Of a stretch of DNA of 64,000 bases, positions 17,815-63,101 are shown one piece after another; positions within the stretch are counted from its first letter, which is position 1; every line of letters starts with the position of its first letter. Under the pieces are notes generated by a model. It did not search any database and was not told where the DNA came from. It saw nothing but the letters and a program-made list of their open reading frames with translations. This stretch comes from an uncultured virus (IMG/VR IMGVR_UViG_3300023239_000006). Lineage: Duplodnaviria > Heunggongvirae > Uroviricota > Caudoviricetes. The stretch covers positions 1-64,000 of the IMG/VR virus record IMGVR_UViG_3300023239_000006; one strand, given 5' to 3'. The position numbers and the translations under genes were made by a program.

Positions 17815-18569
17815 TATCCGATCACCCATCCCCAACCTTGTGTAGTAATACCAGTCTTAAGGTCTTCACTTAGTCTATCCATATCAGATTGTCCTTCAGC
17901 TTTCATTGCTGCCCCGTTAAGCGCTGTGCCGCCCTGCGGACCTGCAATGCTGGCAAACTTTTCACGGGCTTGACCAAGCATCATTTTGCAATTAGCAAGG
18001 GTGTAATCTTTAATCCATTGTCCTGCATACGTATCTTCGATAATTGCGTGATCAGGTTTGACGTTATAAACCAACAACATAACTGACTCTTGAGTGCGAG
18101 GACGTTGATGAATTGTTAGTTTACGGTTTTGTGGATTCCAATTAAAGTTAATAAAAGATCCAAACATCTTACCAACCATTTCTTGATAGCCTGCAAACAG
18201 TTCGTATGTTGCTAGCCCACCCATGTTTGTTGATGATAACAAATAGGTATTTGTGTAGGCTAAGTTAAACGGTTCAAATACGGTACCGCCGCTTCCTCCG
18301 CCTGTGCGCGAACCAATAGTTCTACGATAAATCTGTCGGACAACCTGTATTTCTTTTGGCAAAATATACTCGTTTTGATCTTCTTCAAGATTCAAAAAGA
18401 TGTAACTTTCTTCAACAGCATTATCTGCACGTTGTCGAAATACTGCTAAACTGCGTGTTAGCGCAGTTTCGTAATGGATAGGATCTAGCTCTATATCAAT
18501 CATGCCGTCACCCAGCATGGCTTTACAGTAGTCGTAAACGCTTTGTTTGGTAATATCTATTTGGCTCAT
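17814..18569 (-). CDS. 13: Neck protein (gp13-like)
   Basis: LG...IDIEL N-terminus, WIKDY.LA..K..LG..REKF..I.GP.GG..LNG. Confidence 0.8.
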   Translation of the reverse strand: MSQIDITKQSVYDYCKAMLGDGMIDIELDPIHYETALTRSLAVFRQRADNAVEESYIFLNLEEDQNEYILPKEIQVVRQIYRRTIGSRTGGGSGGTVFEPFNLAYTNTYLLSSTNMGGLATYELFAGYQEMVGKMFGSFINFNWNPQNRKLTIHQRPRTQESVMLLVYNVKPDHAIIEDTYAGQWIKDYTLANCKMMLGQAREKFASIAGPQGGTALNGAAMKAEGQSDMDRLSEDLKTGITTQGWGWVIG

Positions 18570-18574
18570 ACAAG

Positions 18575-18595
18575 TATTTATCGTTACGGTAAATA
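18575..18595. promoter_or_regulatory. Back-to-back late promoters for the divergent neck genes
   Basis: TAAATA on minus at 18575-18580 and on plus at 18590-18595, each 4-5 nt from an ATG. Confidence 0.7.
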
Positions 18596-18599
18596 TAGT

Positions 18600-19865
18600 A
18601 TGCCAAGATTAAGCCTCTACCGCGCCCAAAAGGGCAATGATTTTAAATTCATCGATAAAACCGTTTGGGAAATGTTCCAAGTCGGCGGAGTCGATGTACT
18701 TGTTCACAAGTATATAGGACCTGGTTCTAGCAGTGAAGTTACTCCGACAACTCCTGCATATACCACAGACAATCCTTTACAAATACAAGATTTACTATTC
18801 TTAGAAAATAGAGATCGTAAGTATGATCCGGATATATATAGGCTGCGAGGTGTTTATAATATTCAAGACATTGACTTTAACCTAAGTCAGTTTGGTCTAT
18901 TTCTACAAAATGACACAGTATTCATGACGTTTCATATTAACGATACTGTCGAAAAACTTGGACGTAAAATTATGTCGGGCGATGTAATTGAGCTACCGCA
19001 CTTAAAAGACGAGTATGCACTTAACGATTTGCAGTTTGCTCTAAAACGTTTTTACGTTGTTGAGGAAGTCAATCGTGCAGCGGAAGGATATTCAGTAACT
19101 TGGTATCCGCACCTATATCGTGCTAAATGTAAACCACTAGTAGACAGTCAAGAATTTAAAGACATTCTCAACGGTCTCGCTGACGGAGATGGTAACGATA
19201 CTACCACTACCTTACGTGACATTATGTCTACGTATGAAAAAGAAATGCAGATTACCCAAGCAGTTCTTAACCAAGCAGAAGCAGATGCTCCTAAGAGCGG
19301 ATACGATACTACTAAATTCTGGACTGTTCAACTGGATGAAAACGGAAATGCTGATCTAGTAACTGTTGACAATGAAACTATTGATGCTAGCTTGCAAACG
19401 CAGGCCACTGATGCTAATGGCAACTTGTTGTTTGATGCCAACAACGACCCAATATATGTTGGGCCAACAGCTAGCACAATGTTACAAACTGCCAAGGGCA
19501 ATGGCTACCAAGGTTACCTAACAGGAGATGGCATTCCTTCAAACGGCGCGCCGTTTACTGCTGGCATTGCATTTCCACTGTCAGGCGTAGACGGACAGTA
19601 TTGCCTAAGAAAAGATTACATGCCTAACAGACTGTTTAGGTTCAACGGAACAAGATGGGTTAAGATGGAAGATATACAGCGTATGACTATGAACAATCTA
19701 GGTGCTAGCGATACCGGAGTTGGCGATACATTTGAAGGTAAAGATGTTCGTCAAACACAGAAAGGTACATTTATTAACAATACAAATACAGCAGTCATCG
19801 ACGGGCATACTGTTGAAGAGAAACAAAGCCTTAGCAAGGCGCTTAGACCACAGGCGGATGTATAA
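18600..19865 (+). CDS. 14: Neck/head-closure protein (gp14-like) with C-terminal extension
   Basis: Divergent from gp13; LSQFGLFL, GDVIELP motifs; start moved to ATG 18600. Confidence 0.6.
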   Translation: MPRLSLYRAQKGNDFKFIDKTVWEMFQVGGVDVLVHKYIGPGSSSEVTPTTPAYTTDNPLQIQDLLFLENRDRKYDPDIYRLRGVYNIQDIDFNLSQFGLFLQNDTVFMTFHINDTVEKLGRKIMSGDVIELPHLKDEYALNDLQFALKRFYVVEEVNRAAEGYSVTWYPHLYRAKCKPLVDSQEFKDILNGLADGDGNDTTTTLRDIMSTYEKEMQITQAVLNQAEADAPKSGYDTTKFWTVQLDENGNADLVTVDNETIDASLQTQATDANGNLLFDANNDPIYVGPTASTMLQTAKGNGYQGYLTGDGIPSNGAPFTAGIAFPLSGVDGQYCLRKDYMPNRLFRFNGTRWVKMEDIQRMTMNNLGASDTGVGDTFEGKDVRQTQKGTFINNTNTAVIDGHTVEEKQSLSKALRPQADV

Positions 19866-20413
19866 TGTATATCTATAAATTTATACATACCGAAAGCGGA
19901 AGAGCGTATATAGGGCAAACTATACAAAATCCAAATCGGCGTCGGCTTGAACATATTGCCGATAGTAGGAATACTCCAAGAACATATCACTTTCACAATG
20001 CTTTAAAAAAATACGGATCAGAATCATTTATATTTGAAGTTATTGCAGAAGCGAAATCTTTGGAAGAATTAAACTTGTTAGAGGAAAAATATGTGAATCA
20101 ATACGATTCTATTAACAATGGGTTTAATATTCGACAAGCAGGTGGCAACAAGCTACATTCTGAAGAGAGTAAACAACGGATGAGTGATGCTCAAAAAGCT
20201 GCTCATTTACAGAGAAGATTAGAAGGAAGAGATAGCGGATGGAAAAGGAAAGATGGCGGGCCTATGAAAGGAAAAATCTGTTCCGAAGAAAATAAACAAA
20301 AAAAACGAGAAGCACATTTAAAAGCACAGCACTATACTGGAAAAACTTGGAAAGTTATAGATGGTAAAAGAGTGTGGTTAACTAAGGAGGCTGTGGCTAA
20401 CGCTACTGTATAA
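19865..20413 (+). CDS. Free-standing GIY-YIG homing endonuclease with NUMOD3-like repeats
   Basis: YIY...YIGQT, R..EH, E, NGFN motifs; HSEESKQRMS and SEENKQK motifs; flanked by 8-bp direct repeat TGTATAAT. Confidence 0.9.
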   Translation: MYIYKFIHTESGRAYIGQTIQNPNRRRLEHIADSRNTPRTYHFHNALKKYGSESFIFEVIAEAKSLEELNLLEEKYVNQYDSINNGFNIRQAGGNKLHSEESKQRMSDAQKAAHLQRRLEGRDSGWKRKDGGPMKGKICSEENKQKKREAHLKAQHYTGKTWKVIDGKRVWLTKEAVANATV

Positions 20414-21843
20414 TCATCGACTATTTTTATGACGGACAAATAAGACGATATGTAACGCAATTCATGCGTGTGTTTATAGGATTTAAGTATCAAGACGGAG
20501 AAGGCAATCAATTAAGTGTTCCGGTGCTGTACGGAGATATGACCAGGCAAGTTGCTAGTATTATTAAAGATAACAGCGAAAACAAAATGTCTACCGTTCC
20601 TCGCATTGCCTGTTATATCAGTGGCGTTGACATGGATATGAGTCGGATGAGTGATGCTACGTTTGTTAGTAAGGTTAATATTAGAGAACGTAGATATGAC
20701 GATATCGACGGTACAATTGATTATCAAAATGCACAAGGCGGCAACTATACCGTCGAACGGCTAATGCCTACTCCGTTCACACTGTCTATGAAAGCAGACA
20801 TCTGGACCAGTAACACTGATCAAAAGTTACAATTATTTGAACAGATTATGGTATTGTTTAATCCTAGTCTTGAGTTACAAACAACGGACAACTATATTGA
20901 TTGGACTAGTTTAAGCGTTCTAAATATAAAGACAACTAATTTTAGTTCTAGAACAATACCACAAGGCACTGACAGTGACATTGACATTTGTTCTGTTGAG
21001 TTCGATATGCCTATATGGTTATCTCCGCCAGCCAAGGTCAAGAAGTTAGGCGTGGTTAGATCAGTTATTGCTAATGTGTTCACAGAAGCCGGTGATATTG
21101 TTAATCTTGAAGATTTAGCATTTAATCGGGATAAGGGATCTTTCCAGACTAATCCGTTGCGCTTTCGTGTACTATTGTTTAAATCTAATACTGGTAATAT
21201 CAGTGATAATATTTACGATCTTACACTAGTCAATCCAGGTGCTGCTGTTATTGCACAAGGGTTAGATCAAAAAGCATTCAAGTTAGGTGAACCAGTTGAT
21301 TGGAATAGTTTGTTATCAGCTACCGGTGGGTTTAAAGCTGGAGACCATATTTTCTTTAAGCAGGCTAGCGGCTTTGACATGGTAGGCACATTTGATATTA
21401 ACCCTACTGATCCAACTATTCTAACTGTGTCGTTTGCAGACGATCCTAACCAAATTTCTAATACTGTTATTGCAGGCAAAACTTATGTAGATGCAATCAT
21501 TGATCCTTATAGATTCAATCCTGTTACTACATTTAACGGACAGGCAAATATACCTGAGATTAGATATCTAATGTTAGACGATGTCAATCCTAATAGTGCA
21601 AATGCAGATGGACCCGATGGCTGGAAGAATCTCGACCTTAGTGACCCAGTTATCAAAGCCAACAGTATTATTGAATGGAACGGCACTAACTGGGTTGAAG
21701 TTTGGGATCCTGCTACTGCTACTGTTCCAACTTATATTCAAAACTATCGTACAGGTATCCAATATCGCTGGGACGGTACTCAATGGATGAAAGCATTTGA
21801 AGGCGAGTACGCTCCAGGATACTGGGGAATAGTTAACGGGTAA
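20413..21843 (+). CDS. 15: Tail sheath stabiliser/terminator (gp15-like); true start probably upstream of ATG 20464
   Basis: gp15-like motifs (VPVLYG, P.PFTL....IW, EQI...FNP). The frame is open from 20401 and encodes DYFYDGQIRRY, the expected N-terminus, with no ATG. Confidence 0.7.
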   Translation: MIDYFYDGQIRRYVTQFMRVFIGFKYQDGEGNQLSVPVLYGDMTRQVASIIKDNSENKMSTVPRIACYISGVDMDMSRMSDATFVSKVNIRERRYDDIDGTIDYQNAQGGNYTVERLMPTPFTLSMKADIWTSNTDQKLQLFEQIMVLFNPSLELQTTDNYIDWTSLSVLNIKTTNFSSRTIPQGTDSDIDICSVEFDMPIWLSPPAKVKKLGVVRSVIANVFTEAGDIVNLEDLAFNRDKGSFQTNPLRFRVLLFKSNTGNISDNIYDLTLVNPGAAVIAQGLDQKAFKLGEPVDWNSLLSATGGFKAGDHIFFKQASGFDMVGTFDINPTDPTILTVSFADDPNQISNTVIAGKTYVDAIIDPYRFNPVTTFNGQANIPEIRYLMLDDVNPNSANADGPDGWKNLDLSDPVIKANSIIEWNGTNWVEVWDPATATVPTYIQNYRTGIQYRWDGTQWMKAFEGEYAPGYWGIVNG

Positions 21844-62913: not shown

Positions 62914-63101
62914 AGATAGCCAAACGGATGGAGTCTGAGGTTAAGGGAATCAAGAAAGACGTTCTCAAAATGTGTTGGTACATGAGAGGTCTTTCTTATA
63001 GTGAAGGCATGAATCTAAGTCATGATGAAAGAGAAATTGTTGCTGAGATTATTAAAGAAAACTTAGAGACTACAAAGAAAACTAACTTACCTTTCTTTTA
63101 A
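62874..63101 (+). CDS. gp51-like / 'T'-type ORF, probably the frameshift extension of the upstream gene
   Basis: LKMCWYMRGLSYSE.MNLS.DER motif; no SD-linked start; -1 frame relative to 62023-62889. Confidence 0.6.
   Translation, partial: RSKILNSPLPEILQIAKRMESEVKGIKKDVLKMCWYMRGLSYSEGMNLSHDEREIVAEIIKENLETTKKTNLPFF

Follow-up and report, generated by a model that had tools for sequence, protein, structure and literature searches.

In the window analysed here, a stretch of 64,000 nucleotides forming positions 1 to 64,000 of an IMG/VR virus record (126.6 kb, 39% G+C; IMGVR_UViG_3300023239_000006, an uncultured member of the Caudoviricetes), a homing endonuclease gene stands immediately upstream of a gene for a gp15-like tail sheath stabiliser/terminator and appears to have taken the ATG with which that gene once began. 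Our reading, to which we assign a probability of about 0.7, is that a hairpin-bridged Shine–Dalgarno (SD) sequence carried in the mobile endonuclease cassette drives initiation of the gp15-like protein at AUC 20416-18. Counted from this codon, the gene occupies 20416..21843 on the plus strand (475 codons, with the stop at 21841-43). An initial annotation of the same stretch had proposed this arrangement in outline, and the outline holds; three of its details do not, since the start is better placed at 20416, no G>C event is needed and the 8-bp repeat to which it drew attention carries no meaning.

The proposed sequence of events is as follows. A GIY-YIG cassette has inserted directly after the gp15 start codon, the endonuclease has taken over the ATG and the TAATG overlap, and the 3' end of the cassette would supply a replacement initiation region for gp15, made up of an SD, a hairpin, a spacer and a weak start. 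The strong SD core, GGAGG at 20386-90, is embedded in the last codons of the endonuclease, and an 18-nt hairpin (20391-20408) would reduce the distance between SD and start from 25 nt to 7 nt of single strand. The initiator tRNA would then read the near-cognate AUC 20416-18, giving a protein that begins M-D-Y-F-Y-D-G-Q, and AUC 20413 might serve as a minor start. That the ribosome starts at an AUC is the most likely interpretation of the sequence, and the hairpin would act by shortening the distance from SD to start, as in genes 38 and 25 of phage T4. The combination of a strong SD with a weak codon would be expected to give a low output of gp15, which would suit a protein needed in few copies.

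The first point to establish is where the gp15-like protein begins. Its frame is closed by a TAA at 20398-400 and then reads CGC TAC TGT ATA (20410) ATC (20413) ATC (20416) GAC TAT TTT TAT GAC GGA. No ATG, GTG or TTG occurs in this frame between the TAA at 20398 and GAC 20419, and the first canonical start is the ATG at 20464..20466 on the plus strand, an internal methionine codon in our interpretation. The reading frame thus confirms that the conserved DYFYDGQIRRY, encoded from 20419 on, has no ordinary start upstream of it. The protein matches Pfam PF16724 with 85.7 bits (cut-off 25) over profile positions 1-215 of 245, and position 1 of the profile falls on the Y of YFYDGQ. Two PHROG families, phrog_227 (E 6.9e-20) and phrog_11196 (E 1.9e-74), align with it from residue 1-2, and residues 2-225 align weakly (E 0.0013) with residues 3-220 of the T4 gp15 chain (4huh, 3j2m). 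T4 gp15 forms a hexamer, consistent with the titles of these structure entries. A megablast search of 19300-21000 against GenBank phages gave no match, and gp15 identity to the nearest named phages (the PA5oct group, Phosso and Atu_ph07) does not exceed 33.5%. The gp15 proteins of PA5oct, Phosso and Atu_ph07 begin 1-3 residues before the YFY motif; in PA5oct and Atu_ph07 the gene is preceded by a TAATG overlap and in Phosso by a short gap.

The N-terminal coding sequences of loci bearing the initiation module described below point the same way. There are 33 distinct sequences, reduced to 32 by leaving out L300 as an unrelated open reading frame (ORF). Residues 1, 3-7, 9 and 11 (D.FYDGQ.R.Y) are invariant in all 32, variation at residues 2 and 10 is limited to Y/F and R/K, respectively, and every codon of the conserved residues varies at silent sites. 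The position of Met 20464, by contrast with these invariant residues, is occupied by Ile in 10 of the 32, and by Leu in PA5oct and Atu_ph07. It would be the first canonical start in the frame, and on that account gp15 might be supposed to begin there, with the 16 upstream codons as untranslated relics. However, both the family profiles and T4 gp15 begin at the YFY motif, and no SD-like motif was seen by eye upstream of the ATG. Because of the Ile in 10 of the 32 sequences and the invariance, with silent variation, of the residues before it, a start at 20464 is excluded for the family, and for the window we regard it as very improbable. The profiles, the T4 gp15 alignment and the 32 sequences together confirm that the 17 residues upstream of Met 20464 are conserved, under purifying selection, and they argue that the DYFYDGQ N-terminus is translated.

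The insertion point was located by a survey of the junction in 79 IMG/VR loci encoding closer gp15 relatives (53-71% identity, or 100%). In 69 of these the junction reads ...GAY GAR TAATG-GAY TAY TTT, eight are identical to the window, and two (L057 and L058) contain a 43-nt insert. In the window the upstream ORF ends GAT GTA TAA (19857-65), and its TAA (19863-65) overlaps the ATG at 19865 as TAATG; the sequence and the ORF list agree that the endonuclease starts at this overlap. The inserted DNA is 19868-20418, 551 nt, and deleting it restores the TAATG-GAY junction exactly. Since this is the junction of 69 of the 79 relatives, the insert lies precisely between the ancestral ATG and codon 2, and the claim that the endonuclease holds the ATG of gp15 is borne out. 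The same cannot be said of the 8-bp repeat TGTATAAT as a signature of insertion. Its two copies are indeed present, at 19859-19866 and 20407-20414, but it is an ordinary word, with six copies in the window against 5.9 expected, and in a second lineage carrying an identical cassette the upstream copy is the imperfect TGAATAAT. As the upstream gene of that lineage ends GAT GAA TAA TG, the perfection of the repeat in the window rests on a single base, 19861.

The letters at the junction do not stem from a sequencing error. Twelve other IMG/VR contigs, from 12 datasets, have a 100% identical endonuclease and the same junction letters, and the stretch is present in 23 DNA runs labelled as salt lake metagenome; no RNA run was among the 24 runs listed. 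Logan contigs from four of the runs (2017, 2017, 2018 and 2020) list no other letter at 20410-20418, a check made at the level of contigs and not of raw reads, in which rare variants would not show. All that speaks for a sequencing or assembly error, in a phage that really has ATG at 20413 or 20416, is that ATC differs from ATG by a single base. Against this stand the identical letters in the 12 contigs and the four runs, together with an ATA, ATC or ATT codon (ATH) at the same place in 21 further distinct hairpin modules, and we consider the probability of such an error to be practically nil. The same contigs give no support to the G>C change or error at 20415 that the initial annotation had raised.

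The evidence that carries our interpretation is the conservation of the region between the endonuclease and gp15 as a module. The SD, TAAGGAGG, lies at 20383..20390 on the plus strand, within the last endonuclease codons (K-E-A), and this position, like that of the hairpin arms and loop at 20393-20406, is as first annotated. The word AAGGAGG is rare, with two copies in the window against 4.6 expected, and GGAGG precedes three of 122 crude gene calls of the record, a rough count in which the choice of starts favoured SDs; it is among the strongest SDs of the record. Relatives of the module were collected by pattern scans of IMG/VR and of a metagenome collection, and by a protein search with the endonuclease. 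This gave 30 distinct hairpin versions, with L115, at a contig end, added by hand. Their common layout is (G)GAGG, then C, the 5' arm, the loop (mostly UUUAAC or UUAAC), the 3' arm and G, followed by 7 nt, one codon, and GAY or another first residue. The SD columns G7 A8 G9 G10 C11 (GAGGC) are invariant in all 26 aligned modules. Stem and GAY are 10 nt apart in 23 of 29 modules; in the remaining six, which include the window, the folding register differs (five rows) or the distance is 11 nt (L424). Hairpin-less relatives (L089, L090, L110, L116 and L225) have GAGG, C and 7 nt, 8 nt in total, and then ATC, ATT or ATA.

The codon that directly precedes GAY is ATA in nine, ATC in nine and ATT in four of the 30 distinct hairpin modules, so that 22 of 30 have ATH; one (L421) has ATG in the same position, and seven have AAATCG. 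When this codon was left free in the scans, ATG, GTG or TTG was found in none of 55 loci. The 39 viral loci among them comprised 12 with ATA, five with ATC, two with ATT and 20 with ATCG, and the 16 metagenome loci, some of which are the same contigs as IMG/VR records, two with ATA, six with ATC and eight with ATCG. L421, an IMG/VR contig of 163,947 b, was missed by these scans since its N-terminus reads DHYYDG; its module is the only one with ATG at the start position, followed by GAC CAC TAC TAT. As that ATG sits exactly at the conserved codon, it marks the codon as the start site. In the window, the corresponding codon is ATC 20416..20418 on the plus strand, which is most likely the initiation codon of the gp15-like gene. 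It is separated from the stem by a 7-nt spacer predicted to be single-stranded (20409..20415, plus strand), which includes the endonuclease stop TAA (20411-13) as well as the in-frame ATA 20410 and ATC 20413. From the end of GGAGG at 20390, the in-frame codons at 20416 (ATC), 20413 and 20410 are 25, 22 and 19 nt away, respectively. It was ATA 20410 or ATC 20413 that the initial annotation preferred. These codons lie 1 nt and 4 nt past the stem, at positions that are not conserved, and the sole position conserved across the modules is the codon before GAY; the preference therefore moves to 20416. The proposal of an SD, a hairpin and a non-AUG codon is otherwise upheld, as a conserved and covarying module shared by relatives.

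The hairpin of the window (20391..20408, plus strand) is formed by pairing of GUGGC (20393-97) with GCUAC (20402-06) around a UAAC loop (20398-20401) that contains the TAA of the gp15 frame, and is extended by a C20391:G20408 pair beyond a U20392/U20407 mismatch. It is the minimum free energy (MFE) fold, at -7.2 kcal/mol, and the hairpin was the MFE structure in all six modules folded (-5.4 to -11.7 kcal/mol). For the analysis of covariation, 26 of 31 distinct sequences were aligned, with the window standing in for L005; L197, L241, L257, L261 and L263 were left out as unrelated ORFs that contain the peptide motif. In the seven-pair stem 86.7% of cells are paired, compared with 17-48% when the partners are slid, and five of the seven pairs have changed on both sides. 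There are 22 compensatory cells, compared with 7.1 ± 2.0 in shuffles (none of 500 as high), and the covariation score is 0.357, compared with 0.180 ± 0.022 for shuffled and at most 0.173 for slid alignments. The range of the changes can be seen from the stems CAAUAGU/ACUAUUG (L107), CAUCGGU/GCCGAUG (L112), CAUUGGU/GCCAAUG (L115), CGACAGU/ACUGUCG (L258) and CUGUGGC/GCUACUG (window). It is this covariation across relatives, and not folding energy, that argues for the hairpin.

The module also moves. Between the window and the second lineage (contigs L085, L098 and L135, and L106 on one side) there are no differences over 19862-20445, whereas identity in the flanks is only 74% on the left and 70% on the right. 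The unitig 19862-20445 reaches depths of 32.6 and 36.7 in runs X20 and X23, where the window flanks stand at 8.55-11.6 and a second, diverged right flank at 28-32. Because the tract is identical and the flanks have diverged, the unit at 19862..20445 on the plus strand, from the endonuclease through the SD, the hairpin and ATC ATC to codon nine of gp15, moved recently as one piece; the cassette is thus transferred horizontally. Intact endonucleases whose last codons (K/R-E-A-x-x) lie over the SD occur with both ATH and AAATCG modules; the loci with an intact endonuclease are the window, L119, L181, L084, L258, L343, L344, L346, L406, L407, L412, L425, L226 and L232. In six loci (L102, L109, L112, L161, L099 and L107) the module stands alone, directly after the stop of the upstream gene, and in others remnants of the endonuclease lie beside it (L355, with Met and the last 23 codons; L057; and L108, with ATG GAG GCU left). 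Judged from these sequences, loss of the endonuclease leaves the module in place. In a maximum-likelihood tree of gp15 from a quick search (first 180 residues, 125 rows, the unrelated L145, L197 and L261 having been dropped) the module-bearing rows lie scattered among ATG rows. On this tree the hairpin-ATH label changes 12 times, at least four of the changes being forced by well-supported branches, and the AAATCG label five times, at least three of them forced. A different kind of scar was seen in L166, 60 nt before gp15: it opens with the first 12 bases of the window endonuclease (ATG TAT ATC TAT) and then ends, after which comes a new canonical start, ATG TCT GAT TAT.

Several observations weigh against a hairpin-bridged start at AUC 20416. 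The hairpin of the window is small, and its energy is no better than that of shuffled sequences (z -0.27 and -0.86). The covariation statistics are inflated, because the aligned modules are related to one another and the structure was derived from them, and the gp15 tree is the result of a quick search only. The three in-frame near-cognates at 20410, 20413 and 20416 are inseparable by sequence alone. L421 carries ATG, and hence avoidance of ATG is not absolute; the single ATG among 23 third positions, in rows that are not independent, nevertheless leads us to infer that ATG is selected against in the context of the module, an alternative reason for its scarcity being that the cassette is thereby immune to the enzyme it encodes. 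Finally, seven of the 30 modules, those of the AAATCG class, have no in-frame near-cognate, the in-frame sequence after the nearest stop being ACT AAA TCG. A plain AUH start can therefore not be the whole story for the family.

This sister class includes modules with a hairpin (L057, L233, L232, L230, L195, L223, L226, L340 and L352) and without one (L273 and L251). AAATCG directly before GAY is invariant within it, and it accounts for 20 of the 39 IMG/VR loci of the free-codon scan, on contigs of up to 221 kb. It shares with the ATH modules the SD, the hairpin and the 10-nt distance from stem to GAY, but its ATC, at positions -4 to -2, is out of frame and reads into a TGA after five codons. 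The DYFYDG codons nevertheless vary synonymously, indicating purifying selection in the gp15 frame. Bypass, frameshifting, readthrough and a mini-ORF (NUG-NNN-UAA) were tried by hand against the sequences, and none of them fits all variants of the class. It would need one of three things: four-base AU(C)G initiation, a +1 shift of a near-cognate initiator, or initiation at UCG. A more general possibility, that the start is set by the geometry of SD and hairpin and not by a proper start codon, can be entertained from the shared layout, though we think it rather unlikely. A phage initiator tRNA matching AUC or UCG was also sought. No tRNA genes were found in the window or in the 126.6-kb record, and no initiator with an altered anticodon was seen by eye among the 41 tRNA genes that are clustered within 14 kb on the 221-kb relative L389 (G001:C1:5000-19000), a contig of the AAATCG class. 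The tRNAs of that contig include three with CAT, two Ile-GAT and one Ile-TAT, with no Ser-CGA. G003, the larger contig for the phage of the window, has two tRNA genes at its end, so that its tRNA cluster is probably cut off there.

The position of the endonuclease stop raises another possibility, that termination and reinitiation are the main route into gp15, with the ribosome stopping at UAA 20411-13 and restarting at AUC 20413 (as UAAUC) or AUC 20416, and with the SD and hairpin playing a minor part. In the window the stop is 2 nt before ATC 20416 and overlaps ATC 20413, and coupling through overlapping stops and starts is common in the record (18 of 122 crude gene calls). In most endonuclease-bearing relatives, however, the stop is the loop TAA of the hairpin, some 18 nt further upstream (L119, L346, L343, L406 and others), and many loci with a module have no endonuclease, or other ORF, ending nearby (L102, L109, L112 and L161). 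The late stop of the window is itself a local peculiarity. Its loop (CUAAC) is one base shorter than that of L355 and L346 (CUUAAC or UUUAAC), and for this reason the stop is shifted from the loop TAA to the TAA at 20411-13, which lengthens the endonuclease by five residues (NATV after EAVA). In addition, homing endonucleases are as a rule weakly translated, according to PMC2988022, so that coupling would feed few ribosomes to gp15. We therefore consider reinitiation as the main route unlikely. The coupling to endonuclease termination that had been suggested for this locus is possible in the window, but it is not a conserved property of the module.

It is also conceivable that the ATG at 19865-67 is still used and is joined to GAC 20419 by recoding or RNA processing, whether by excision as in an intron, by a bypass like that of T4 gene 60, or by a frameshift fusion. 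Precise removal of the insert would restore the ancestral gene, and for T4 gene 60 a bypass signal is known to be part of a mobile endonuclease cassette (bioRxiv 10.1101/2022.08.31.505936). Group I and group II introns with an endonuclease ORF were considered and rejected: Rfam gave no intron or ribozyme match over 19700-20600, and the endonuclease ORF fills 549 of the 551 inserted bases, which leaves only two outside it. Scars of about 36-43 nt retain the module (L108 and L057), the DNA contigs show no joint across the insert, and no matched take-off and landing codons common to the variants were found by eye; the gap in the window would be 551 nt. As the distance from GAGGC to GAY is 27, 28 or 29 nt, the frame of the endonuclease relative to gp15 differs among loci and no frameshift is conserved. 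We give re-joining of any of these kinds very little credence, and return to new initiation at AUC 20416 as the preferred explanation.

This explanation has close parallels, as well as differences, in known systems. In T4 gene 38 a hairpin reduces the distance from SD to AUG from 22 to 5 nt, and in gene 25 from 27 to 11 nt; destabilising the hairpin of such a split ribosome-binding site (RBS) lowers translation (PMC3014915, which reviews Nivinskas et al. 1999 and Malys and Nivinskas 2009). The window resembles both genes in that the linear distance from SD to start is too great (25 nt, compared with 22 and 27) and would be shortened by a hairpin (7 nt, compared with 5 and 11), in that the structure is kept across relatives, and in that the gene served is a late structural one. 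The T4 genes, as described there, use AUG, whereas the window has ATC and its relatives ATH, and the sequences are unrelated. Unlike those of genes 38 and 25 as there presented, the SD of the window lies inside the coding region of another gene, within a mobile cassette that is gained and lost.

For the start codon the comparison is with infC and pcnB. The AUU start of infC serves the autoregulation of IF3. Reporter measurements in E. coli put initiation at AUA, AUC and AUU at 1-2% of the AUG level, with an N-terminal Met, and infC and pcnB are the only confirmed non-canonical starts listed in that study (bioRxiv 10.1101/063800). As in these two AUU-started genes, a near-cognate AUH codon in the window takes the place of AUG, is kept in evolution and would be expected to give a low output. 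The differences are that the gene is here a phage tail gene, that all three AUH codons are used interchangeably, and that the codon arrives with a mobile element.

With regard to the endonuclease, PMC2988022 describes promoters for the downstream gene embedded in free-standing endonuclease genes of T4. Like the seg and mob genes as described there, the gene in the window is a free-standing GIY-YIG gene between two essential genes that rides on the expression of the upstream one, has signals for the downstream gene inside its coding region, which would favour its retention, and shows presence/absence polymorphism and transfer with flanking sequence. The embedded signals reported there for T4 are promoters, whereas here a full ribosome-binding module, non-AUG start included, would be embedded, and the endonuclease has appropriated the start codon of the host gene itself. 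The parallel with MobA and gene 60 (bioRxiv 10.1101/2022.08.31.505936) lies in the interruption of an essential gene by a mobile endonuclease element that supplies a short structured RNA signal, with an SD, through which the gene is still expressed; that element shows many independent insertions at one site and hit-and-run losses. There, elongating ribosomes hop 50 nt between matched codons; the window gives no sign of hopping and looks like a new initiation site.

A search of Rfam over 19700-20600 (E up to 10) returned only a spurious microRNA match (E 4.5) and no family for the hairpin. A full-text literature search, whose coverage largely leaves out subscription journals, found no published description of the module. 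It belongs to no described RNA family and works like the split RBS of T4 genes 38 and 25; what appears from the sequences to be new is a split RBS with a non-AUG start, within a mobile endonuclease cassette. A regular-expression scan of the record found no second copy of the module (SD, hairpin and start site), the other hits looking like chance hairpins. The same crude scan picked out two sites with GAAGG followed directly by a 5-7 bp hairpin and then ATG, at 63003-63030 (plus strand) of the window and at 79512 (plus strand) of the record, outside the window, which may be further hairpin-bridged ribosome sites. In L419, the sequence 3' of the endonuclease stop reads GGGGAGGG, then 6 nt, and then a GTG that is one base out of the gp15 frame across a run of seven T; the run is either a homopolymer error, in what is a single contig, or a slippage site.

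The cassette gene itself (19865..20413, plus strand, 182 aa in the ORF list) matches the Pfam domains GIY-YIG (31.3 bits, cut-off 22.6) and NUMOD3 (25.9 bits, cut-off 20.4) and phrog_314 (E 1.6e-27), which identify it, from its sequence, as a free-standing GIY-YIG/NUMOD3 homing endonuclease gene. It is present in a single copy within the 126.6-kb record. The protein search returned 38 related loci, and the same junction is occupied in all 20 inspected relatives with at least 57% identity. The gp15 junction is an insertion hot spot, since other, unrelated ORFs at this junction keep a TAATG overlap with gp15, as seen in L033, L046, L048, L050-L052, L076 and L083 and further in L035, L038, L039 and L042-L045; one of these ORFs is Cys-rich and ends ...QQGKEFN before the stop, and another ends ...KKASK before the stop. 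Within the endonuclease gene, a T>C at 20143 of the window is the sole difference listed for the contig of run X19, though the piece counts two other letters. On the other side of the junction, the upstream gene (18543..19865, plus strand, as listed among the ORFs) matches phrog_11591 (E 4e-89), a virion structural protein family, and the upstream proteins of relatives share the ending ...RP(K/Q)AD(E/N/V) before the stop. The name gp14 first given to this gene is not established by that match.

If our interpretation is correct, AUA, AUC or AUU appears to serve as the start of an essential structural gene throughout a clade of large uncultured phages, and gene callers will truncate gp15 at an internal Met or call the gene broken. 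It would also illustrate how insertion of a selfish endonuclease at a start codon can leave the host viable: the element brings a portable ribosome-binding module, and this module, of SD, structured spacer and weak start, remains as a scar after the endonuclease has decayed. The idea of the split RBS developed for T4 would come to include a non-AUG start and a mobile element, and the more than 20 natural variants with compensatory changes in the stem are ready material for reporter tests. Should one of the three routes considered for the AAATCG class prove real, AUC 20416 would be one of a family of portable initiation elements in which the rule for start codons is relaxed. The AAATCG class poses a concrete puzzle about how start codons are recognised.

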